Shown here: positions 101 through 62,527 of the stretch, piece by piece
Layout of the letters: each line of letters starts with the position of its first letter
Numbering within the stretch: the stretch's first letter is position 1
Sequence record: PZ445554.1
DNA from: a phage
Length of the DNA stretch: 64,000 nucleotides
Strand: one strand, 5' to 3'
Made by a program: the position numbers and the translations under genes
The notes under the pieces: generated by a model
What the model was told of the DNA's origin: nothing
Database searches by the model: none
What the model saw: only the letters and a program-made list of their open reading frames with translations

Positions 101-433
101 TTATTTTACTACTTTCCAATGCTGCATGTCAAGTTTACCAACTTTTTTCATCTTCTCAATTAAGCGTTCGGCGCGTTGGCGAGCTGTAACATAATACCAT
201 TCACCTAATTCATTTTGTTCAATTTTTCCAACGATTACTGTATTCAATTCATAAATCCAACCAGTAAAGAAATTATGAACTTGAATTGTAAAGGTGAAAT
301 CTGTTCCCATACCTTCTGTTGTTTCTACTTCAATAATATCACCTTCAACTGCCATTAAAAACCACATAGTTTCATTATATTTACCATTGAAGCATTTAGT
401 TTTAACTGTAGCGTTCAGATTAATCGTTTTCAT
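101..433 (-). CDS. hypothetical protein, 110 aa
   Basis: ORF track; ATG start read at 431-433; lies downstream of a promoter/terminator pair. Confidence 0.5.
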   Translation of the reverse strand: MKTINLNATVKTKCFNGKYNETMWFLMAVEGDIIEVETTEGMGTDFTFTIQVHNFFTGWIYELNTVIVGKIEQNELGEWYYVTARQRAERLIEKMKKVGKLDMQHWKVVK

Positions 434-454
434 TTTATTCTCCTTTGTTTGTGT

Positions 455-490
455 AAGATAATACTATCACAAAGGAACCGTACTGTAAAC
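455..490 (-). promoter_or_regulatory. T4 early-type promoter upstream of ORF 101-433
   Basis: GTTTAC (485-490 complement) followed by GTGATAGTATTAT. Confidence 0.4.
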
Positions 491-510
491 AACTTTGTGC
501 AATCTTTGGA

Positions 511-538
511 AAATAAAAAAGGACTCCCGAAGGAGTCC
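511..538 (-). terminator. rho-independent terminator
   Basis: Stem GGACTCC, loop CGAA (TTCG on the transcript), stem GGAGTCC, then U-run on the minus-strand transcript; identical hairpin at 53073-53090. Confidence 0.6.
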
Positions 539-543
539 TCAAC

Positions 544-3089: not shown

Positions 3090-3322
3090 AGTACGCCATA
3101 CACCCTTTGTGCTTCAACTAATCCATCGAAATCCAGTTTAAGATGCGATATTTGATCGCCATCACCTGGATTCACAATTACTAATACTGAACGAGGAGTT
3201 TCGGTAATAACACGAACCGATGTTTCAGGAAATCGTTCAGAAACCCTATTTACTAATTCCTGTGCAAATAGTTTAACTTTTTCTTGGAATTCTTTAACAG
3301 TAATTGGTTTTTCACTTAGCAT
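3086..3322 (-). CDS. hypothetical protein, 78 aa
   Basis: ORF track. Confidence 0.45.
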   Translation of the reverse strand: MLSEKPITVKEFQEKVKLFAQELVNRVSERFPETSVRVITETPRSVLVIVNPGDGDQISHLKLDFDGLVEAQRVYGVL

Positions 3323-3843
3323 GTTGATCCCAGCTCCTTACTTTCAACGTTTTTAACTAATTTGACAGAAACTAATTCAGCATCTTGAGTAATCATTACC
3401 GGACCTTCTTCATACTCTTCAAGATATTCTAGAGCTTTCTTTTTAGCTTCTTCCTTCGTATCAGTTTGAGCATAGATATAAAACATACAACCAGTAATAC
3501 CTACTACTTTCCACTTAATTTCTTTATCAGCTTTAATTTCAAATTTACTGACAGAATCATCTTTTTGAACTTCTTCGAAAAAAGAATATTCTAACATATA
3601 AGCAATTGAAAATAACGGGCTAACTTTATAGGATTCGCCCATTACATCAACAGCTTTATACCAGCAATCATCAATTTCGCGTTTAATGCTAATAACATTT
3701 TTCGCAGGATCTATTTTTACTTTAAATGAATTTTCCCCAATAAACTGGGCAATTCGTTTATTAGCCCCGCAAGTTTCATTAAAAATATCTTTATATCCAG
3801 TTTTAAAGCGATAAACCTTATCTTCTTCAAACCATTCGCTCAT
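3316..3843 (-). CDS. hypothetical protein, 175 aa
   Basis: ORF track; SD GAGGAAA and early-type promoter upstream (3868-3902). Confidence 0.5.
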   Translation of the reverse strand: MSEWFEEDKVYRFKTGYKDIFNETCGANKRIAQFIGENSFKVKIDPAKNVISIKREIDDCWYKAVDVMGESYKVSPLFSIAYMLEYSFFEEVQKDDSVSKFEIKADKEIKWKVVGITGCMFYIYAQTDTKEEAKKKALEYLEEYEEGPVMITQDAELVSVKLVKNVESKELGSTC

Positions 3844-3867: not shown

Positions 3868-3902
3868 GAGCTATAATATCACAACTCTACCGTAAAGTAA
3901 AC
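3868..3902 (-). promoter_or_regulatory. T4 early-type promoter
   Basis: GTTTAC-17 bp-GTGATATTATAG. Confidence 0.45.
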
Positions 3903-6857: not shown

Positions 6858-6896
6858 GTAAGACTACTATAACACAACACGAGGGACTTGTAAACA
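6858..6896 (-). promoter_or_regulatory. T4 early-type promoter upstream of the alc candidate
   Basis: GTTTAC-17 bp-TTATAGTAG. Confidence 0.4.
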
Positions 6897-15052: not shown

Positions 15053-15157
15053 TTATTCTCATTAGCAAGCTTTAATCAAAAGATATAAACAGACCAACAT
15101 AACTGCTGCCATAATATAAGGTGCGAACATTTTCTTTTCTCCATTAGTTTTGATAGG

Positions 15158-15190
15158 GTAATAGTATCACACTACTACCCTGTTGTAAAC
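15158..15190 (-). promoter_or_regulatory. T4 early-type promoter
   Basis: GTTTAC-17 bp-GTGATACTAT. Confidence 0.45.
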
Positions 15191-15576
15191 TACTTTTTGA
15201 AAGTTTTTCGCAAAAGTTCAATGATTTCATCTACATTATTTTCGTCAACAATGCAGTGAATTTTTGTTACGCCAGAAACCTTGTCTTTAACTTCATCCTC
15301 TTCAGAAGTAGGTTCTTTATATTCGCGGAAACAATAAAACTCTTCTTCACTAAGTTCAAAATAATCATCACCCATACCATCATCATTATAGATTTCACCA
15401 TTAGCACAAATGATTTCGGTTACATAATCAAAGCCATCTAAACTTGATATTGATTTAACTTCAAACCAACCACCATTTTCTTGAATGATGCCGACCATAT
15501 TAGCATTTGATGAACTAATATCAATGAAAGATTTAATACGGTGTGGATTTAACTCGTATTTTTTGCCGATTTCCAT
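15190..15576 (-). CDS. acidic hypothetical protein, about 128 aa
   Basis: In-frame ATG at 15574-15576 with SD GAGGA preferred over the ATG at 15591. Confidence 0.45.
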   Translation of the reverse strand: MEIGKKYELNPHRIKSFIDISSSNANMVGIIQENGGWFEVKSISSLDGFDYVTEIICANGEIYNDDGMGDDYFELSEEEFYCFREYKEPTSEEDEVKDKVSGVTKIHCIVDENNVDEIIELLRKTFKK

Positions 15577-15621: not shown

Positions 15622-15849
15622 TTATTGTTCAATCATTCCCATGTAAAATTCTGTGTCTTCAGCATCCATACCATCACAATATTCATTAGCCATAAACCGC
15701 TCAAGAACTTCTAAAGGACCTTCAATAACGATTTGAATGCTCCAAAACTTAGAATCTTGTACACTTGTGATACTAAGTTCAGGATAACGATTACGAATAA
15801 TTTCTTCAATATATTCAAAATCAACGATGTCAATATCAACTTTAGCCAT
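15622..15849 (-). CDS. hypothetical protein, 75 aa
   Basis: Track start (TTG, 15912) runs through the promoter cassette; ATG at 15847-15849 with SD AGAGGAAA lies just downstream of the promoter. Confidence 0.45.
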
Positions 15850-15885
15850 ATTGTTTTCCTCTTTAATCGTCAGCAGTATTGCTGA

Positions 15886-15922
15886 TAGTTGTATAGTACC
15901 ATGGAAGGACAAGGATGTAAAC
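15886..15922 (-). promoter_or_regulatory. T4 early-type promoter (cassette copy) upstream of ORF 15622-15849
   Basis: GTTTAC-18 bp-TGGTACTATAC; part of a repeated cassette. Confidence 0.5.
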
Positions 15923-15940
15923 AGTTTTGTGAAAAAATTT

Positions 15941-15971
15941 TTAAAATAAAAAGGGGACCTCTAGGGTCCCC
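15941..15971 (-). terminator. rho-independent terminator downstream of gene 32
   Basis: Stem GGGGACC, short loop, stem GGGTCCC, then U-run on the minus-strand transcript. Confidence 0.55.
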
Positions 15972-19187: not shown

Positions 19188-19222
19188 TTTCTATTATATA
19201 CTATCTAAATCTTAAAGTAAAC
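19188..19222 (-). promoter_or_regulatory. T4 early-type promoter for rnh
   Basis: GTTTAC-17 bp-ATATAAT. Confidence 0.45.
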
Positions 19223-24982: not shown

Positions 24983-27967
24983 ATGGCTACTTTAAAACAA
25001 ATACAATTTAAAAGAAGCAAAACTGCAGGTCAACTTCCTGCTGCTTCAGTATTAGCCGAAGGTGAATTGGCTATTAATTTAAAAGATAAAACAATTTTCA
25101 CAAAAGATGACTCAGGCAATGTTATAGAATTAGGTTTAAAATATGGAGGAACAATTGATGGTTCTTTAACTGTTAATGGAAATATAATTGGAAATTTAAC
25201 AGGTAACGCTGCAACTGCAACGAAATTAAAAACAGCACGAAAAATTAATGGTATATCCTTTGATGGGTCAAAAGATATCACGCTAACTCCATCTGACATA
25301 AATGTCAATAGCACAACGTTTATAAAAAATAATGGCGAATTACCTGTTGATGCTAATTTAGATACGTATGGGCCTGTTGAAGAATATCTTGGAGTTTGGT
25401 CGAAAGCAACTTCAACCAACGCTCAACCAGCAAATAAATTTCCAGAAGAAAATGCTGTAGGTGTGCTAGAAGTATTTGTGGCCGGTCAATTTGCTGGTAC
25501 TCAGAGATATACAACTAGATACGGAAATGTTTATATTCGTTCCTTGACTGCTACATGGAACGGAGTAAATGGTCCGTGGAGTGTGTGGCGAAATATTCAA
25601 TCCGGTACTCGTCCACTGTCAACAACAATTGATCTTAATGATCTAGGAGGCGCTGAACACTTTGGTTTGTGGCGAAATAGTTCAAATTCCATTGCTACCT
25701 TTGACAGAAATTTCCCAGAAGAGGGGTCGTCAGCTCAAGGTCTTTTGGAAGTATATGAAGGTGGAAACTATTCTCGTACACAAAGATATACAACCAGATT
25801 TGGTGTTGTATATACTCGTTGTCTTGCTGCCGCATGGGATGCTTCCGCGCCTAAATGGGGACCGTGGCAACAAGTCGGTAATGTCACACCAGCGACTTTC
25901 TATGACGGAGATCTGAATGATTTTAAAACCCCTGGGTTATATAATATTTTAGGCACTGATGCCGTTATTAACTGTCCTACAGGTGAAGGTTTGCCGACTG
26001 TTATTGTTGGTTTGCTGGAAGTTAAACAACGTGCTTCTGGCGGTGCTATTTTCCAAAAATTTACTACTGCCGGAACGGGTGCAACTACTCGCGATCGTAT
26101 TTTTGAGCGTGCATATACTGGTGGTGTGTGGGGTGCATGGAACGAAGTATATACATCTTACTCTCTGCCAATTACTTTAGGTATGGGTGGTATTAAAACT
26201 CAATTAGCGGAGCTAGATTGGCAAACATTTGATTTTGTTCCTGGTAGTATGTTTAGCGTTCCTTTGAACAAAATAAAGAACATGCCAGCTAATATGAATT
26301 GGGGCACGATTGACGGAAACTTAATTATGTTTTCTGTTGGTCCTAGCGAGCACACCAGCACAGGACGTACTGTTCAGGTTTGGCGTGGTACTGTATCCCA
26401 GACAAACTACCGTTATTTTGTCGTTCGTGTGTTCGGTAATTCTGGAAATAGAACTTGTACAGTTCGCCGTGTTGTTCTTGAAGATGGTCGCCACACATGG
26501 ACAGCTCAACAAGATTTTAATGGTGCTGTTAACTTCGGTGCTCCTACCAATTTTAACTCTACTGTTAACCTTAATAACACTACCACATTTAAAACAGAAG
26601 TTAAATTTCGCTCATTGAATGCATTCCGTATGTATGGCGGAAAATTTGGTACATTTTTACGTAATGATGGAGAGAGTCTTTATATTCTTTCCACCGACGA
26701 AGATGATCAAGATGGAAACTTTAATACAAATAGACCTTTCCGTTATGAATTAAGAACTGGTGATGTTACTTTGGGTGGTGCTAGTGGTGCTAACGTTTTA
26801 AAATTAAAACGTGATTCTCTCACCGCATTTTTTGGCGGTGATATTAACATTAAAGGCACGATGACTTTTGACGCCGGACGTTTAGGATCACGAGATTATT
26901 TTAAATTTAACCATTGGGGTGATAGTAATAATGCGCGTGATAACATTATTCAGTTAGAAGACAGCAAAGGCGCTCATTTTTCCACTGAACGTACTTTAGC
27001 GACTGGTGCAATTAAGACTAAATTTTTTGGTGAAATTGAATCCGATGGTAAATTGGTTATTAAACGTCCGGGTGATTCTATTGTATTATCAACAACTGCT
27101 AGTAATTCTTTGCATATTCGTGGTGACATAGACGGGACTGGTAACTGGTATATTGGTAAGGGTGGTGCTGATAATGGATTAGCGTTATATAGTTATGCTA
27201 CTAATGCTGGTGTATACATTACAAACGCAGGAGATATCACGCTAAGTCCAAAAGGCGTCGAAATGGCCCATGTCAATAACGTTCGATTATATGTTCATGG
27301 TGAACGTTGGACTGCTAGTCAACCAGGTGATTGGGGTAGTCAGTGGCAAGTGGAAGCGCCAATATTCGTCGATCATGGTTATGTTTCACAGGATTGTTAT
27401 TATCCAATTATTAAAGGAAGAAGTGTAATCACCAATCAAGGGTTTGTAACTGCCGTCGATCTTGGTATTCGTCGTGTCAATAACAATTGGGGACAAGCAA
27501 TTATTCGTGTTGGATCTGCGGAGGCATCGCCAGCGGCTGGACACCCTAACGCGGTATTTGAATTTCATTACGACGGTACTTTCTATTCTCCTGGTAATGG
27601 TAACTTTAGCGATGTGTATATTCGTTCCGATGGTCGTCTTAAGATTAATAAAAAAGAGCTAGAAAACGGAGCACTTGAAAAAGTATGCCGACTGAAAGTT
27701 TATACATACGATAAGGTTAAGTCTATTAAAGATCGTAGTGTTATTAAACGTGAAGTTGGTATTATTGCTCAGGATCTTGAAAAAGAATTACCGGAAGCTG
27801 TGTCTAAAGTTGAAGTTGATGGATCTGATGTTCTGACAATTTCTAACTCCGCTGTGAATGCTCTTTTAATTAAGGCTATCCAAGAAATGAGCGAAGAAAT
27901 TAAAGAATTAAAAACGCCTTTCTTCACTAAAATTGCTCGCAAAATTAGTAAATATTTTAAATTCTAA
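24983..27967 (+). CDS. 37: long tail fibre distal subunit gp37
   Basis: 994 aa; three tandem repeated modules; C-terminal intramolecular-chaperone-like domain. Confidence 0.85.
27604..27964 (+). other. C-terminal intramolecular chaperone / self-cleaving domain of gp37 (peptidase S74-like)
   Basis: Motif ...[18 protein letters not shown]...[12 protein letters not shown]... resembles auto-processing chaperone domains of tail fibres and endosialidases. Confidence 0.5.
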
Positions 27968-29774: not shown

Positions 29775-29927
29775 TCAATTAGTTGACTTTGTTATAATAT
29801 CATCAGACGCTTGATTTGTAAACTGGTCTGTGTTATTTTCTTCAAAAATTTTTTCTACGAATTCTTTGAACGACTCACGTTCCTGAGTTACATTGTGCTC
29901 GATTACCATTTCAAGATTATAACTCAT
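29775..29927 (-). CDS. small ORF, about 50 aa (absent from track)
   Basis: ATG overlaps arn stop (ATGA); an early-promoter motif sits in its 3' end. Confidence 0.25.
   Translation of the reverse strand: MSYNLEMVIEHNVTQERESFKEFVEKIFEENNTDQFTNQASDDIITKSTN
29790..29823 (-). promoter_or_regulatory. T4 early-type promoter for asiA
   Basis: GTTTAC-17 bp-ATATTATAAC. Confidence 0.45.
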
Positions 29928-31739: not shown

Positions 31740-32375
31740 TCACAGTTCAGACGCTACGGTGATTACTGCTTCAATGTTTTCTGCCGAGCGTTTAATGTCA
31801 AGATACACATTACCGTTTTTAGCGATTTTACATGACATTCCGATATCAGTAAATTTCTGAATATGATGTTCCATCATTTTGTATCCAAAAATTCGCATAT
31901 TTCCATTGTTGTTAATTTCAAAATTACGAATTCCGTGAGTGCGTTTTTCTAAAATAGCGAGATAGTTACTGCGGTAAGTTTCAACCTTTTTAAGAACAAA
32001 TCCATTTTCATCTAAAAGTTTTAACATGAAGTCTTTATCTTCTTCCATATCAGAAGTAATTTCGCGAGCTTTACGAGTTGCTCGTTTTTTCAGCAGTTCC
32101 GGAGCGTTTTCCTGTGCGTATAAAGTTGCTGCATTTGAAATAATATCCTGAGCTTCACCTGTAATGATTAATCCATCACCAGATTTCTCCACCAGGCCTT
32201 TTTTAATCAATACCCCAATATTACTATTAACTACTGCGTTACCTAAATCTGGATGCACCTCACGAACTTCTGCAGCTGTAATGAAATCTTTCTTAGCAAT
32301 GGTAATTAAAATCGCAGCAGTTTTTTCATTCAGAACATCGTTAGAAGCTTTGATGATGTAAGTTACTTTAGACAT
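31740..32375 (-). CDS. motA: middle-promoter transcription activator MotA
   Basis: 211 aa, sequence recognised as T4 MotA; early promoter and terminator upstream. Confidence 0.9.
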   Translation of the reverse strand: MSKVTYIIKASNDVLNEKTAAILITIAKKDFITAAEVREVHPDLGNAVVNSNIGVLIKKGLVEKSGDGLIITGEAQDIISNAATLYAQENAPELLKKRATRKAREITSDMEEDKDFMLKLLDENGFVLKKVETYRSNYLAILEKRTHGIRNFEINNNGNMRIFGYKMMEHHIQKFTDIGMSCKIAKNGNVYLDIKRSAENIEAVITVASEL

Positions 32376-32409
32376 TTTCTAATCTCCGTAATTCTGTATC
32401 AGTAGTTGA

Positions 32410-32446
32410 TAGTTGTATAGTACCACAGTATGCTTTGGTTGTAAAC
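32410..32446 (-). promoter_or_regulatory. T4 early-type promoter (cassette copy) for motA
   Basis: GTTTAC-18 bp-TGTGGTACTATAC. Confidence 0.5.
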
Positions 32447-32465
32447 CGTTTTGTGAAAAAATTTT

Positions 32466-32496
32466 TAAAATAAAAAGGGAGAGCCGAGGCTCTCCC
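32466..32496 (-). terminator. rho-independent terminator
   Basis: Stem GGGAGAGCC / GGCTCTCCC, then U-run on the minus-strand transcript. Confidence 0.55.
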
Positions 32497-32501
32497 TAAA
32501 A

Positions 32502-35420: not shown

Positions 35421-35534
35421 TCACATAAATCCAAAGTAAACGTTTAATACATCAATCATTAAAACGATTGGGAATATACTCAAAACTACTAGTATTATAA
35501 CTACATTCCATATAGCTTTAATAATCTTTTTCAT
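35421..35534 (-). CDS. small membrane peptide, 37 aa
   Basis: ATG at 35532-35534 with SD GGAGG just downstream of a promoter cassette; the track's longer form translates the cassette itself. Confidence 0.3.
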   Translation of the reverse strand: MKKIIKAIWNVVIILVVLSIFPIVLMIDVLNVYFGFM

Positions 35535-35555
35535 TTTCTGTTCCTCCGTAGTTGA

Positions 35556-35593
35556 TAGGGTAATAGTACCACGGAAGAACAGTCTTGTAAACA
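35556..35593 (-). promoter_or_regulatory. T4 early-type promoter (cassette copy)
   Basis: GTTTAC-spacer-CGTGGTACTATTAC. Confidence 0.45.
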
Positions 35594-35776
35594 ACTTTTT
35601 AAAAATATTCGTAATAAATGTGAATACCAACTACTACCGCTGAAACCTGTGCAACCCACCACGCACAAGCAATAAGTACAGAATTCAAAATTTTCATAAT
35701 AACCTCATCACAAAAGTAAATGTTAAACAAATTAATGGAATACTAATTAACCAAACAAAACACCACCATAATGAAC

Positions 35777-36040
35777 TCATAGTTCAATCTCAGCGATTTT
35801 CATTTCATTATTGTTAATAGCATTTTTAAGACTATCCGAAAGAATTACATTCCAGTGGTCATTCATATGACCATTAACTAAGCGTGTAATTTCTTCGGGA
35901 GTTGAAAAATAAGGCGTATCAGACTCCCAATGCGATAATCCTAAGCGAGTATAAATCATGCCTTCATCATCGCTAGAATATTCAACTGACACAAACTCAT
36001 CAGTTATTTTATGTTTAGCGTAATAAAATTTAAATTTCAT
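35777..36040 (-). CDS. hypothetical protein, 87 aa
   Basis: ATG at 36038-36040 with SD GGAG downstream of promoter cassette 36068-36104; the track form starting at 36139 runs through the cassette. Confidence 0.4.
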   Translation of the reverse strand: MKFKFYYAKHKITDEFVSVEYSSDDEGMIYTRLGLSHWESDTPYFSTPEEITRLVNGHMNDHWNVILSDSLKNAINNNEMKIAEIEL

Positions 36041-36067
36041 TTTACTCTCCAAATCCGTATCAGTTGA

Positions 36068-36104
36068 TAGTTGTATAGTACCACGGTCCTTGTGGTATGT
36101 AAAC
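36068..36104 (-). promoter_or_regulatory. T4 early-type promoter (cassette copy)
   Basis: GTTTAC-spacer-CGTGGTACTATAC. Confidence 0.45.
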
Positions 36105-36120
36105 CATTTTGTGAAATTTT

Positions 36121-36678
36121 TTAAATGGAAAGATACCATCCGCTGTAGTTGCTTTTTCTTACAACCTTACGAAGGTCTTCTCTATCACCGATGAACTTCG
36201 GAGTGTATTGGATGACACCTGGATGAATTTCTTTAGTGTTGAATATAATTATACAGTCAGCGACTTGATGATTTAGAATGGGCCCTAGATTTATTCCAGA
36301 ACCATATGGATACTCTCCGCTGCATCCTGTTGTCACCGAAATCCAACGTGAGTCAGTTTGATGTGTCTTAACTTCTACACGAAGCCCGCAGTATCTTGGA
36401 TGCGCCAATACATCCCATGCATATGTGTACGGATCATCGACATCTTCTTGACCTTTGTTAACATACCCGCTCAGCCAATCTGCTACAAAAAACTCTGCGT
36501 ACACAGCGATACGGCATCTTTCGATAACTTCTGCCTTATCCTGATTTGGGTTTTGTTTTAAAGAGTATCTTGCAGTATCAACAATTTTGACCTTCATTTC
36601 ACTAGTCAAGTCACTGTTCGATAGGGTAAATGTCGGAATCTGAAATAGTCTCTGTAACCCCGGATTCGTTTTCTGCAT
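36121..36678 (-). CDS. denB: endonuclease IV
   Basis: 185 aa equals T4 EndoIV length; SD AAGGAAAG; position upstream of rIIB. Confidence 0.6.
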   Translation of the reverse strand: MQKTNPGLQRLFQIPTFTLSNSDLTSEMKVKIVDTARYSLKQNPNQDKAEVIERCRIAVYAEFFVADWLSGYVNKGQEDVDDPYTYAWDVLAHPRYCGLRVEVKTHQTDSRWISVTTGCSGEYPYGSGINLGPILNHQVADCIIIFNTKEIHPGVIQYTPKFIGDREDLRKVVRKSNYSGWYLSI

Positions 36679-36940
36679 TTAAACTTTCCTTTTTACCACT
36701 AAGATAAGCGTTATACACTTTAAGAGTACCATAGTAAATTCGATCATTTTCATCTAAAGAATTACGATCAAGTTCATCGAGATTCTTTTTGTCCATGACT
36801 ATAACATCATTGCAGTAAAGAACTCCAAGTTTTTCATGCCCAAACTCGAATTTATTGCAGTACACAATATTAGCGTAATGATTACCATGTAGAGAAATTT
36901 CTTTTATGTCGGTGTCACCGATATTCATACAATAAATCAT
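36611..36940 (-). CDS. hypothetical protein, 109 aa
   Basis: ORF track; overlaps denB N-terminus by 68 nt in another frame, so uncertain. Confidence 0.35.
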   Translation of the reverse strand: MIYCMNIGDTDIKEISLHGNHYANIVYCNKFEFGHEKLGVLYCNDVIVMDKKNLDELDRNSLDENDRIYYGTLKVYNAYLSGKKESLNAENESGVTETISDSDIYPIEQ

Positions 36941-40564: not shown

Positions 40565-40596
40565 TAATTATACCACATCCTTGTGGTAAAGTAAAC
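40565..40596 (-). promoter_or_regulatory. T4 early-type promoter upstream of ORF 40338-40541
   Basis: GTTTAC-17 bp-GTGGTATAAT; overlaps the gp39 3' end. Confidence 0.5.
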
Positions 40597-43933: not shown

Positions 43934-44104
43934 AATTTCCTCATTAATTGAACATTGGAGCGATGCGTTTCAGAAGAGTATCAGCGCACCTTTAACGAAT
44001 TATCCATTTTATTCTTCAAGTTGTTTTCTGTATCAGTAGTTGATATTGATATAGTACCATAATCAACTACTGATGTATATAGTTTTATGAAAAAATTTTA
44101 AACT

Positions 44105-44596
44105 TTATGCATAGCGAGCTTTGCTGTAGTGTTTAATCCAACTTTCAGGAATGACTTTGTATGTTCCTAAAAATACCGCGTTGTATAACTTAACGCCATC
44201 TTCTACCCATTGATCAGTAATGTATGCACACATAGCGCGAGTACGCTGAGGAAGTGGTTGTCCACCTTCGGTAAATTCAAACTCATAAGGAGCAATGAAC
44301 TTGATAGCTTGACCAAGTTTCCACTTAAAGTCTACACCTACATGCGAAGTATCAATCGTTTCAATTCCTTTAGCAGGAACAGCTTTCAAAAACGCAGGCT
44401 CAAGAAATTTCCATCGAACATAACCAAACTGGGGCTTAGACATTCCATCTTTAGCAATGATACGTACTTTTACTTCAGAATCTTCATCTTTAACACCGTG
44501 TTTAAGCTGAATGCTTACAACTTCGACCAATTTTCCTGCTGCTTTAGAACGGGATTTATCAGATACACGAGCAATTTCACCGATATTAATATTCAT
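44105..44596 (-). CDS. hypothetical protein, 163 aa (motB position by synteny, unverified); paralogue of the next ORF
   Basis: C-terminal motif TDQWVEDGVKLYN shared with 44670-45173. Confidence 0.5.
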   Translation of the reverse strand: MNINIGEIARVSDKSRSKAAGKLVEVVSIQLKHGVKDEDSEVKVRIIAKDGMSKPQFGYVRWKFLEPAFLKAVPAKGIETIDTSHVGVDFKWKLGQAIKFIAPYEFEFTEGGQPLPQRTRAMCAYITDQWVEDGVKLYNAVFLGTYKVIPESWIKHYSKARYA

Positions 44597-44669
44597 AATT
44601 ATCTCTCACTTGTTAAAAAGATTTTATACTCCACAGGACCATTATACTCTGGTCCCAAGAGTTTGTAAA

Positions 44670-45703: not shown

Positions 45704-45742
45704 ATGGTGTTATAATACCACAACTAACCGAGGAAGTAAACA
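45704..45742 (-). promoter_or_regulatory. T4 early-type promoter
   Basis: GTTTAC-17 bp-GTGGTATTATAAC. Confidence 0.5.
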
Positions 45743-48484: not shown

Positions 48485-48792
48485 CGTAAATTCCCTGCAA
48501 TTGGTATACTAACAATACGCCCAGTATCTAAAATTCGCTGATATAATCTTTGCGTGTCTACGTCAGGCTTAACATGTTTAACTTCTATTTTATTAAACCA
48601 AAATTTACGTGGAGTCTCAACTAATCTTGGAATTCCCTTACCTAAAGCTAGTCGATACTGCTCTTTAAGAGTAGTAAATACTTTATCAGCAATATTCCAT
48701 TCAAAAAATACAGCAGGACGATGTTCATCAAGTGGAACTGGCGCTGTAAATCCGTCTTTGTCTCGGTAAACTATCGCATATACATAAACCAT
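48481..48792 (-). CDS. hypothetical protein, 103 aa
   Basis: ORF track. Confidence 0.5.
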   Translation of the reverse strand: MVYVYAIVYRDKDGFTAPVPLDEHRPAVFFEWNIADKVFTTLKEQYRLALGKGIPRLVETPRKFWFNKIEVKHVKPDVDTQRLYQRILDTGRIVSIPIAGNLR

Positions 48793-48793
48793 A

Positions 48794-49540
48794 TTATCCT
48801 CGGATAAGTTTAAAAATTGAACAATTTAGCGGGTATCCTCTTTTCAGTTTAAGTTTATCAATAAAAGACAAGTTTTGATACCGCTCTACACCTTGAATAA
48901 TTTTATCACACATATCATATTGCATTTCTGCTTCTGACAACTTTTTCACAATTTTCCAATCCGAGCCTTTAAGAAGAACGTTCAATTTAACAACTTCAGC
49001 GCCTTCTGCTATACGAGAACCATCAATACGAGCTTTAAGTGCTATAATCCTCAGCTTAATGTCAGAGGTCTGTTTTGATTTAGAAAGCTGAGAAATGTGC
49101 TCAATTCGGTTTTCACGTTTTTTCTGTATAGCTTTAATTTGATTATAAGTCTTTTTGATTTTAGCCCATTTCTTTTCATCTAAATTTAGTTTATGAACTT
49201 TTTTCGCAGATGAACGACCAATTCGCAAAGCAAATAAATCCCGTTTTTCAATCAACTCTTCTAAAGTATAATCAGAACGAAATGTATTATACTTTTTCTT
49301 TACTGCAATAACATTCCCTTTAATGTATCCAACGTTATTATCAAAACGTTCTAATGATAATTTCTCTCCTTCAATACGATTATCAAAAGGTTCTCCCGAG
49401 TAAGCACAAACTTTTTGATCTAAAATGTTCTTAATGTAATTGAAGTCTAAGTTAAAATCTTTAGAACGTCTTTTTGCAGATGCCTGAGTATGCTCTAGAC
49501 GACGTTTAATTTTACGAATTTGGTTATTAGACAGCTTCAT
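48794..49540 (-). CDS. basic 248-aa protein (srd position by synteny, unverified)
   Basis: ORF track; early promoter at 49570-49606; weak HNH-like resemblance (CAYSGEPF...ERFDNNVGYIKGNV) without catalytic His. Confidence 0.5.
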   Translation of the reverse strand: MKLSNNQIRKIKRRLEHTQASAKRRSKDFNLDFNYIKNILDQKVCAYSGEPFDNRIEGEKLSLERFDNNVGYIKGNVIAVKKKYNTFRSDYTLEELIEKRDLFALRIGRSSAKKVHKLNLDEKKWAKIKKTYNQIKAIQKKRENRIEHISQLSKSKQTSDIKLRIIALKARIDGSRIAEGAEVVKLNVLLKGSDWKIVKKLSEAEMQYDMCDKIIQGVERYQNLSFIDKLKLKRGYPLNCSIFKLIRG

Positions 49541-49569: not shown

Positions 49570-49606
49570 TACTTATACTATAACATTTTTACCTTAACTT
49601 GTAAAC
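49570..49606 (-). promoter_or_regulatory. T4 early-type promoter
   Basis: GTTTAC-spacer-ATAGTATAAG. Confidence 0.4.
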
Positions 49607-53021: not shown

Positions 53022-53056
53022 ATTCTATTATACCATACTCATTTTGGAAAGTAAAC
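53022..53056 (-). promoter_or_regulatory. T4 early-type promoter
   Basis: GTTTAC-spacer-TATGGTATAAT. Confidence 0.5.
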
Positions 53057-53065
53057 CGGTAAAAT

Positions 53066-53090
53066 GAAAAAAGGACTCCCGAAGGAGTCC
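53066..53090 (-). terminator. rho-independent terminator downstream of soc
   Basis: Same hairpin as at 521-538, preceded by an A-run on the plus strand. Confidence 0.6.
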
Positions 53091-53098
53091 TTGAATTA

Positions 53099-56417: not shown

Positions 56418-56451
56418 TTATATAGTATCTCAATTTCCAACAAAAGTAAAC
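56418..56451 (-). promoter_or_regulatory. T4 early-type promoter for sp
   Basis: GTTTAC-17 bp-ATACTATAT. Confidence 0.45.
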
Positions 56452-56921: not shown

Positions 56922-56954
56922 ACTACTATACCATAGTCTTGTCAGCTTGTAAAC
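56922..56954 (-). promoter_or_regulatory. T4 early-type promoter for dmd
   Basis: GTTTAC-17 bp-GTATAGTAG. Confidence 0.45.
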
Positions 56955-61978: not shown

Positions 61979-62359
61979 TCACTTAGTCAAATTTTTTACG
62001 CATGAATTATAAGAATTCACTACATACTCCATCGGAGCATTTTTACCGGTACGCCATTGGTAATTATTAGCCCAATTTGCCCAAATTTCAGCACAGTAGT
62101 TTTCAATTTTTTCTTCGCGTGTAATTACATCCGAATTACGATATGCTTGAGCAGATTCATCTGGACGAATAGCTTCGTCAAAATTCGCCTGCATTTGTTC
62201 TACTGTTTGCTTTGGAGCTTCTTTATAACACTTGACATTAGGATTATAAAACTTGCTTGAACAGTTTACAATTTTTCCTACATCAGACTGATTTACTACC
62301 GGTCCTTGAGCTACACAACCAGTAAGACCTAATGCAATAACCAAAATAGCGATTTTCAT
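61979..62359 (-). CDS. putative lipoprotein, 126 aa (imm.1 position)
   Basis: ATG at 62357-62359 with SD GGAGAA (track start is TTG); signal peptide with lipobox LTGC. Confidence 0.5.
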   Translation of the reverse strand: MKIAILVIALGLTGCVAQGPVVNQSDVGKIVNCSSKFYNPNVKCYKEAPKQTVEQMQANFDEAIRPDESAQAYRNSDVITREEKIENYCAEIWANWANNYQWRTGKNAPMEYVVNSYNSCVKNLTK

Positions 62360-62387
62360 TTCATTCTCCAAATCCGTATCAGTTGAT

Positions 62388-62424
62388 AGTTGTATAGTAC
62401 CATGGAAGAACAGGGATGTAAACA
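62388..62424 (-). promoter_or_regulatory. T4 early-type promoter (cassette copy)
   Basis: GTTTAC-18 bp-ATGGTACTATAC. Confidence 0.5.
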
Positions 62425-62504
62425 GTTTTGTGAAAAAATTTTTAGTGAATTCAAAGGGTCCAGAATCATCTGTTTTTCATAAGTATAGATTTATATTACT
62501 TGTA

Positions 62505-62527
62505 TGAAAAGGGGACCCGGAGGTCCC
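62505..62527 (-). terminator. rho-independent terminator downstream of gene 43
   Basis: Stem GGGACC, 4-nt loop, stem GGTCCC, then CUUUUC on the minus-strand transcript. Confidence 0.5.

Follow-up and report, generated by a model that had tools for sequence, protein, structure and literature searches.

The sequence module that recurs in the stretch of phage DNA analyzed here (64,000 nt, record PZ445554.1, hereafter the window) very probably represents early promoters (PE) of the T4 type, which often come with a stem-loop (PeSL), and patches of sequence appear to have been exchanged between its copies. A first, sequence-only reading had described a promoter-leader-terminator cassette dispersed through the early regions and had compared it with the early promoter stem-loop modules of T4-type phages. 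The repeated module was correctly identified, and it is already known because PeSLs have been published (Arbiol 2010; Comeau 2014).

Results

Identity, number and placement of the copies

The window is a segment of a Tequatrovirus (T4/RB32-like) genome. A 2-kb probe around the module, whose match covers gene 32 and frd.1-frd.3, finds several hundred Tequatrovirus genomes, with 97-98% identity to fPS-65, RB33 and RB32. In an alignment with T4 (AF158101) the window starts at about gene 30.9, continues through gene 32, the tail-fibre genes, motA, the ndd-denB region, rIIB/rIIA, motB, modA, dmd, uvsX and imm and ends within gene 43. It was compared with T4, Sf23, PD112, HY03 and SH-2 and with several IMG/VR contigs.

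The six copies originally listed are all present and all lie on the minus strand. A repeat search returned one 77-nt family with six copies (15868-15944, 32392-32468, 35538-35614, 36050-36126, 44026-44102 and 62369-62445), and two further copies at 450-507 and 15150-15207 had been missed. An nhmmer profile built from eight copies gives eight matches in the window (E = 5e-18 to 2.5e-12) and also picks up weaker relatives, nearly all of them on the minus strand. The pattern GTTTAC-N18-GGTACTAT is matched five times as compared with 0.00 times in 100 dinucleotide shuffles, while TTTACW-N17-TAYWAT, the published T-even/PeSL consensus for T4/PST, is matched 14 times against 0.41 expected, 14 of 14 times on the minus strand. 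With E-values of at most 2.5e-12 for eight copies and five pattern matches where none were expected, the alignment stands clear of the AT-rich background. Mere chance similarity of AT-rich intergenic DNA might be put forward in view of the AT-rich genome, and in a generic sigma70 and terminator scan promoter-like sites were indeed no commoner than in shuffles (79 versus 77.9; 71 versus 74.3). In DNA this rich in AT such a scan is uninformative, significance being reached by the class-specific patterns alone. The pattern counts and nhmmer E-values refute chance similarity, and the matches, moreover, are confined to a single strand and all lie upstream of gene starts, so that this explanation has practically no probability left. 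A scan of the whole window against Rfam at gathering thresholds yielded zero matches.

Once the variants TATAGT, TAGTAT and ATATAC are added, the window contains about 19 early-type promoters, each located on the minus strand upstream of the orthologue of a T4 prereplicative gene, namely 30.8, cd.2, alc, frd.1, frd.3, rnh, asiA, motA, ndd.4, ndd.6, rIIA.1, cef, motB, motB.2, srd, mrh.2, sp, dmd and imm.1. Early-type promoters on the minus strand precede rnh (19193..19221), asiA (29794..29822), rIIA.1 (40567..40595), srd (49577..49605, TTTACA-17-TATAGT) and sp (56422..56450); the others are described below. The eight strong copies are positional orthologues of the T4 promoters of 30.8, frd.1, frd.3, motA, ndd.4, ndd.6, cef and imm.1. 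The same nhmmer profile recovers the orthologous sites in T4 with nearly identical side-by-side alignments, and all eight strong copies as well as weaker ones, including those of cd.2 and motB.2, align with T4 base for base. One orthologous promoter is named in the T4 record itself (Pe133295, cd.2). As loci and alignments match those of T4, the copies are fixed orthologous promoters that have not recently moved, and the term "portable", which had been applied to the cassette, is not borne out, every strong copy occupying its T4 locus. The genes behind the copies are unrelated to each other, as had been noted, each copy preceding a different prereplicative gene orthologue; motA had been named correctly among them, while the supposed lipoprotein gene is the orthologue of T4 imm.1.

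Multiple dispersed copies in front of unrelated small ORFs could also be taken as a sign of a mobile element, either MITE-like or similar to an integron cassette, that carries a promoter to new sites by transposition or through a recombinase, and the speculation of Arbiol 2010 about a recombinase and integrons points in the same direction. Against this, the copies occupy the same positions in T4, Sf23, PD112, HY03 and SH-2, they share a single orientation, that of early transcription, and they show no terminal inverted repeats, target-site duplications or associated recombinase. Given orthologous positions in six genomes and the lack of visible terminal repeats and target duplications, we reject this explanation as highly improbable.

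Anatomy of promoters and leaders

Read on the minus strand, the elements follow each other in the order A/T-rich tract (typically AAAAATTTTTTCACAAAAC), G-TTTACA, 17-bp spacer, TGG-TACTAT and ACAACT. The predicted transcription start, placed by spacing alone, is the A of ATCAAC about 7 nt downstream of the -10 element, and the resulting leaders of 21-37 nt terminate with a Shine-Dalgarno sequence, GGAG or GAGG, and the ATG. The previously proposed combination of AT tract, GTTTAC box and -10 element is found in eight copies with one deviation: GTTTAC is exact in seven of the eight strong copies and replaced by ATATAC in the cef copy. TGGTACTAT or TGATACTAT, that is a TGn extended -10 with TAnnnT, follows at a distance of 17 bp in eight of eight.

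The frd.3 promoter and leader (15847..15951, minus strand; orthologue of T4 146833-146905) comprises the UP element AAAAATTTTTTCACAAAAC, GTTTAC at 15922-15917, TACTAT at 15898-15893, a predicted +1 at about 15886 and the ATG at 15849-15847. In the motA promoter and leader (32373..32475, minus strand) the -35 element is located at 32446-32441, the -10 element at 32422-32417 and the predicted +1 at about 32410, followed by a GGAG Shine-Dalgarno sequence and the ATG at 32375-32373; the 63 nt from the -35 element into the leader are 100% identical in T4, Sf23, PD112, HY03 and SH-2. The remaining strong copies, likewise on the minus strand, are those of ndd.4 (35532..35619; -35 at 35592-35587, -10 at 35568-35563), of the ndd.6 locus downstream of denB (36038..36133; -35 at 36104-36099, -10 at 36080-36075), of cef (44005..44106; degenerate -35, -10 at 44056-44051; identical in five other phages), of imm.1 (62357..62453; -35 at 62423-62418, -10 at 62399-62394, ATG at 62359-62357; orthologue of T4 27036-27109) and, both missed at first, of the frd.1 locus (15128..15220; -35 at 15190-15185, -10 TACTAT at 15166-15161) and of 30.8 (431..540 including the adjoining terminator at 519-540; -35 at 490-485, -10 TAGTAT). 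The leader of the ndd.6-locus promoter, ATCAACTGATACGGATTTGGAGAG, leads to an ATG at 36040-36038 that opens an 87-aa ORF (35777-36040, minus strand) absent from T4, and the promoter of the cd.2 locus (3873..3901, minus strand; orthologue of T4 Pe133295) drives a 175-aa ORF (3316-3843) that is also absent from T4. In a PHROGs scan of three extra ORFs only families of unknown function were returned.

High identity among the copies, as originally claimed, applies to the UP element, the -35 element, TGn/-10 and the surroundings of +1 but not to the core of the spacer. The UP element, AAAAATTTTTTCACAAAAC or close variants, is 73-96% identical among frd.3, motA, cef and imm.1, whereas a segment-by-segment identity matrix gives background values of 14-43% for the 14-nt spacer core in most pairs, random 14-mers averaging 27%. 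Selection on the contacts with RNA polymerase keeps the copies alike, as the confinement of conservation to the contact elements shows. Much of the resemblance among the copies is due to functional constraint, imposed by these contacts, and not to recent common ancestry. Carried to its limit, this leads to pure functional convergence, according to which the likeness arises from polymerase contacts alone, recombination plays no role and any association with indels is a by-product of the intergenic gaps. The restriction of conservation to the contact elements and the +1 region, the background identity of most spacers and the location of all copies at T4-orthologous loci are in line with it; other evidence is considered below.

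GGAG is present in six of the eight leaders. As candidate sites of RegB, which are defined by an unpaired GGAG with an A-rich tract behind it, the 30.8 leader, GGAGAATAAAA, fits the full consensus GGAGRAYARAA and the others agree with it at six of seven downstream positions; GGAG Shine-Dalgarno sequences of early genes are targets of RegB (reviewed in PMC3014915). A short palindrome had been reported for the leader of each copy. It amounts to an RNA hairpin at frd.3 (UCAGCA-AUAC-UGCUGA, 15885-15870, minus strand; -7.1 kcal/mol) and at no other copy, the folding energies being -0.6 kcal/mol at motA and cef and 0 at the remaining copies, and the short variant ATCAACTGAT is unable to fold. A general 5' RNA hairpin formed by the leader palindrome is therefore ruled out.

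Terminators upstream of the promoters

A GC-rich hairpin terminator had been assigned to each copy. It is present at frd.3 and motA, but none is found at the copies listed as 35541-35600, 36041-36120 and 44025-44100, and the one at imm.1 exists but lies about 60 nt upstream of the UP element. Across the whole set, a terminator adjoins the promoter in four of 19 cases, that of imm.1 being a fifth at a distance. The four abutting terminators (519-540, 15953-15971, 32476-32497 and 53071-53092) consist of a G+C stem-loop and a T-run, with -14 to -19.5 kcal/mol, and two of them belong to copies left out in the first reading, those of 30.8 (519-540) and mrh.2 (53071-53092). At mrh.2 terminator and promoter (53027-53055) form a composite (53027..53092, minus strand). 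No upstream terminator was found at the ndd.4, ndd.6-locus, cef and frd.1 copies.

The terminator in front of frd.3 is the intrinsic terminator of gene 32 (15953..15971, minus strand; GGGGACCCTAGAGGTCCCC + T5ATTTT, -14.3 kcal/mol), which is identical in T4 and whose T-run passes directly into the frd.3 UP element. The motA promoter is adjoined by an intrinsic terminator that follows motA.1 (32476..32497, minus strand; AGGGAGAGCCTCGGCTCTCCCT + T5ATTTT, -19.5 kcal/mol, z -4.8). Upstream of the imm.1 UP element, a terminator-like hairpin with a weaker tail follows gene 43 (62512..62527, minus strand; GGGACCTCCGGGTCCC + CTTTTCATAC).

Probable exchange of patches between copies

Comparison of the frd.3 locus between phages reveals an 18-nt spacer that has been swapped as a whole between flanks that are about 95% identical. 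The spacer reads AAGCATAAAGCTTTATGG in T4, ATCCTTGTCCTTCCATGG in the window, HY03 and Sf23, ATCTCTGTTCTTCTATGG in PD112 and AACCAAAGCATACTGTGG in SH-2, and the SH-2 version equals the spacer of the motA promoter, as present in every phage examined, at 18 of 18 positions. Allele-specific 96-nt queries, covered to at least 80%, distinguish three unrelated alleles among about 500 Tequatrovirus records: the window type in about 268, the T4 type in 131 and the motA type in 98. The frd.3 spacer of the window is 86% like its imm.1 spacer, and the T4-type frd.3 spacer also occurs at another locus, before another gene, in two IMG/VR contigs. As for imm.1, T4 and Sf23 have a spacer of the ndd.4 type, whereas that of the window, SH-2 and ZN18 corresponds to the window type of frd.3. 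The ndd.6-locus promoter keeps its spacer across phages, but both its leader and the first gene behind it come in three different versions. More generally, among the phages compared identical leaders are joined to differing genes and differing leaders to one gene. Judged from these alignments, exchange of spacer and leader patches between copies is evident.

Compared with T4, the 3 nt ACT are missing from both the ndd.6-locus and the imm.1 leader of the window. Concerted evolution of this indel was considered and discarded: the two loci are concordant in T4, the window and ZN18 and discordant in two IMG/VR contigs, and for this reason the indel is not a clean signal.

Promoter-to-ATG zones make up 3.8% of the sequence. 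For indels of at least 25 bp relative to five genomes, 13 of 71 have a breakpoint in these zones where about five would be expected, a modest enrichment with events shared between genomes; in the comparison of the window with T4 alone it is two of 23, which is about chance. Since these genomes have little intergenic DNA, proximity to promoters is to be expected anyway of indels that spare genes. Where junctions are resolved best, they lie in SD/ATGAAA repeats of 8-14 nt, located at the 3' end of the cassette and not in the promoter core. An eight-codon ORF behind the T4 ndd.6 promoter (MKIAEIEL) is a deletion remnant of the 87-aa ORF that the window carries at this place.

These observations weigh differently on convergence without recombination. 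The lack of indel enrichment against T4 alone and the microhomology at the junctions agree with it. The pooled excess of indels speaks against it, as do the replacement of the entire frd.3 spacer between nearly identical flanks, the spacers that equal those of other promoters (SH-2 frd.3 and motA; window frd.3 and imm.1) and the reassortment of leaders and genes. Altogether we consider convergence alone unlikely. Sub-module exchange between copies and the position of indel junctions at the leaders lend support to the earlier suggestion that the copies may mediate shuffling.

Predicted hairpins pairing the spacer with the 5' untranslated region

In many of the 19 promoters the spacer is able to pair with the discriminator and the 5'UTR such that the -10 element comes to lie in the loop. 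Segments of 47 nt, from just after the -35 element to about +16, were folded and compared with 49 control segments upstream of other minus-strand gene starts. Eight of 19 promoters have z < -3 as compared with one of 49 controls (Mann-Whitney p = 4e-4), and z averages -2.7 over all 19. The z-scores are -7.0 for motB.2, -6.5 for alc, about -6.3 to -6.4 for cef, -5.8 for dmd, -5.1 for the cd.2 locus, -4.0 each for motB and ndd.4 and -3.0 for the frd.1 locus. Folding is more favourable for the sense than for the antisense strand, by 2.9 kcal/mol on average (Wilcoxon p = 0.012), and this speaks for RNA, not DNA, as the folded molecule.

At cef, a perfect 13-bp inverted repeat (44074-44062 with 44044-44032; -20.2 kcal/mol) surrounds the -10 element, and hairpins also extend across this element at motB (44641..44669) and, with 15 bp, at dmd (56925..56953). 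The ndd.4 spacer TTCTTCCGTGGTA pairs with the leader sequence ACTACGGAGGAAC, Shine-Dalgarno sequence included, in 13 pairs that are 100% paired in five phages; at the frd.1 locus, GGGTAGTAGTG in the spacer pairs with TACTATTACCC. Spacer and discriminator form the hairpin at the cd.2 locus, the spacer pairs with the leader and the Shine-Dalgarno sequence at motB.2 (45712..45740) and with the Shine-Dalgarno region at alc (6866..6894; TTTACA-17-TATAGT, TGn), all these promoters being on the minus strand. The 3' arm contains the Shine-Dalgarno sequence at alc, motB.2, ndd.4 and 30.8. In the ndd.4 and dmd stems seven of seven variable positions are changed on one side only and are G.U-compatible, leaving 100% of the cells paired in the phages compared.

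The strongest among the hairpins belong to promoters with no terminator upstream. Even so, six of the 19 promoters are without a terminator and a significant hairpin alike, and a joined stem-loop is a property of the promoter class and not of every copy.

Discussion

As depicted by the elements assembled here, unmodified host sigma70 RNA polymerase is predicted to bind the copies very strongly immediately after infection, contacting the A/T-rich UP element (through alpha-CTD), the -35 element TTTACA, the TGn extended -10 and TACTAT across a 17-bp spacer. Selection of the same contacts at every copy accounts for their likeness. Transcripts would carry short leaders whose GGAG-type Shine-Dalgarno sequence is of the kind targeted by the RegB nuclease, which would later inactivate the early mRNAs. 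The stem-loop usually coupled to the promoter would handle transcripts arriving from upstream. It takes one of two forms, either the preceding gene's intrinsic terminator, which is fused to the UP element, or a predicted hairpin between spacer and 5'UTR. As comparative data suggest, 40-70 bp of shared sequence may allow the very active homologous recombination of the phage to exchange patches between copies and to join different genes to the same promoter and leader.

T4 early promoters (PE) were reportedly described by Liebig and Rueger in 1989 and by Wilkens and Rueger in 1996. Their UP/-35/TGn/-10 architecture (Hinton 2010, PMC2988021) and the position of GTTTAC at -36 to -31 (Nolan 2006, PMC1524935) are established. 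The promoters of the window agree with those of T4 in the UP element, GTTTAC, the 17-bp spacer, TGn, the -10 element, the conserved +1 surroundings and the loci, likewise precede prereplicative genes on the strand that is transcribed early and are near-identical to T4 at 30.8, frd.1, motA, ndd.4, cef and motB.2. They differ in that the frd.3 and imm.1 spacers are whole-patch replacements relative to T4 and in that two of the promoters drive extra ORFs.

PeSLs were defined in RB49 and phi1, for which promoter and terminator activity as well as mini-circles were shown; a specific recombinase was speculated upon, the cassettes were likened to integrons, and the elements at T-even IP loci were regarded as analogues, not homologues, built on T4 early promoters (Arbiol 2010, PMC2839356). 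For T4/PST, and also nt-1/KVP40, PeSLs were later described as TTTACW-N17-TAYWAT with stem-loop, Shine-Dalgarno sequence and start codon, located next to indels, and an exchange was depicted at ndd.4/ndd.5, a locus inside the window (Comeau 2014, Fig. 6A, PMC4122927). The resemblance to T4-type PeSLs that had been suspected is borne out by the 14 consensus matches, the stem-loops and the Shine-Dalgarno sequences with start codons. As in the RB49 subclasses, stem-loops in the window are found just upstream, as terminators, or across the -10 element, and the promoters appear to go together with indels and small variable ORFs, among them those of the ndd region. In contrast, the promoter boxes of the RB49/phi1 elements match TTGACA/TATAAT almost perfectly and their stems have the form G(n)-loop-C(n), and it is for these two phages only that mini-circles and terminator activity were demonstrated experimentally. 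In the T-even elements of Comeau 2014 the stem-loops are drawn upstream of the promoter, and the spacer-to-5'UTR hairpins (8/19 in the window) are not described there. According to the summary in PMC2839356, Repoila 1994 reportedly found repeats of early promoter and AT-rich stem-loop flanking T-even IP loci and proposed that they limit and direct shuffling. Those repeats and the copies studied here share the T4 early promoter, the stem-loops and a position bounding variable genes, but the IP loci lie outside the window.

The spacer-to-5'UTR hairpins of T-even early promoters are only a lead. No description of them was found in the more recent literature that was surveyed. It is conceivable, though at present doubtful, that T-even early promoters are systematically built into sense-strand hairpins of spacer versus discriminator/5'UTR, so that read-through transcripts would fold the translation initiation/RegB site away or would be attenuated or stabilized, while local transcripts would lack the 5' arm. 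A precedent is provided by late promoters inside hairpins, which are involved in translational control of e, soc, 49 and I-TevI (Uzan and Miller 2010, PMC3014915). There, too, the promoter is found in the 5' arm or loop, the read-through transcript has both arms and the local transcript is devoid of the 5' arm. In contrast to these documented cases, the promoters in the putative hairpins of the window are early, and the Shine-Dalgarno sequence is part of the stem in only about four of nine hairpins.

In essence, the module combines the textbook T4 early promoter with published PeSL-mediated modular shuffling, and as such the finding itself matters little. Its value for annotation is that about 19 early transcription units are marked in the window and that variable ORFs directly behind promoters (3316-3843 and 35777-36040) are flagged. 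If the hairpins between spacer and 5'UTR were real, they would extend the promoter-in-hairpin logic of the late genes to the early class and would explain why spacers, although not read by the polymerase, are swapped as whole patches with or against leaders; if confirmed, they would be of moderate interest for post-transcriptional control in T4. The three frd.3 spacer alleles in about 500 genomes, finally, are clean examples of patch exchange with which ectopic gene conversion could be quantified in T4-like phages.

Hairpins surrounding the -10 of early promoters

RNA hairpins in which the spacer pairs with the 5'UTR, such that the -10 is enclosed, reached folding z-scores below -3 at 8 of the 19 early promoters in the window as compared to one of 49 control regions. 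The promoters included, for example, those at 6866-6894, 45712-45740, 56925-56953, 3873-3901 and 35563-35591. These structures are more stable on the sense than on the antisense strand, and the sequence variation within them keeps to G.U-compatible changes. The Shine-Dalgarno sequence is part of the 3' arm of the hairpin at alc, motB.2, ndd.4 and 30.8.

Complementarity between spacer and leader is exact in the promoter copy at cef (44032-44074, minus strand), where the start of the leader (ATCAACTACTGAT) is the precise reverse complement of the spacer (ATCAGTAGTTGAT). A perfect inverted repeat of 13 bp, with a folding energy of -20.2 kcal/mol and a z-score of -6.4, thereby surrounds the -10. 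In this copy, the -35 is degenerate and reads ATATAC. The sequence in T4, Sf23, PD112, HY03 and SH-2 is identical to that of the window. Identification of the repeat as a classical terminator was rejected, because no T-run is present on its 3' side.

Variable segments at early promoters and in the denB region

In two IMG/VR contigs, 3300010279_000005 (L008) and 2974742932_000001 (L009), a terminator-promoter composite at another locus joins an imm.1-type leader with the T4-type frd.3 spacer, and the gene located 3' of it begins with MKTVTINKGIYFGKEISG. At the junction of the imm.1 promoter with imm.1 itself (62346-62359 in the window; 48721-48957 and 48502-48738 in the comparison sequences L016 and L019, respectively), Sf23, SH-2, ZN18 and two IMG/VR contigs contain an extra ORF of 78 aa (MKIVMGCLAVCLVALAA..., resembling a signal peptide) that has ATGAAAAT repeats on both of its sides and is absent from the window and from T4.

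Downstream of the frd.1-locus promoter (15128-15130 to ~15060; compared with sequences L017, L018 and L019), a small unannotated ORF (MFAPYIMAAVMLVCLYL...) precedes frd.1 in the window, T4 and Sf23, while frd.1 is fused directly to the promoter in PD112, HY03 and SH-2, the difference amounting to 84 bp. The orthologue of the T4 early promoter Pe133295 is separated from cd.2 by an inserted minus-strand ORF of 175 aa (3316-3843; PHROG 3710, unknown function), and the leader's SD/ATG marks the exact point at which homology to T4 is lost.

Between denB.1 and denB resides a 109-aa ORF (36611-36940, minus strand; PHROG 2237, unknown function), a similar version of which occurs in Sf23 and PD112. T4, PP01 and UFV06 lack ~200 bp of this region (36693-36894), with an overlap of ~11 bp at the junction. 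The promoter downstream of denB is directly followed by an 87-aa ORF (35777-36040, minus strand; PHROG 2390, unknown function). T4 lacks the 87-aa ORF and retains only an eight-codon remnant (MKIAEIEL), which arose through deletion between AAATGAAA repeats. This junction also holds an additional ORF of ~68 aa in SH-2 and UFV06, and a different segment of 208 bp in PP01.
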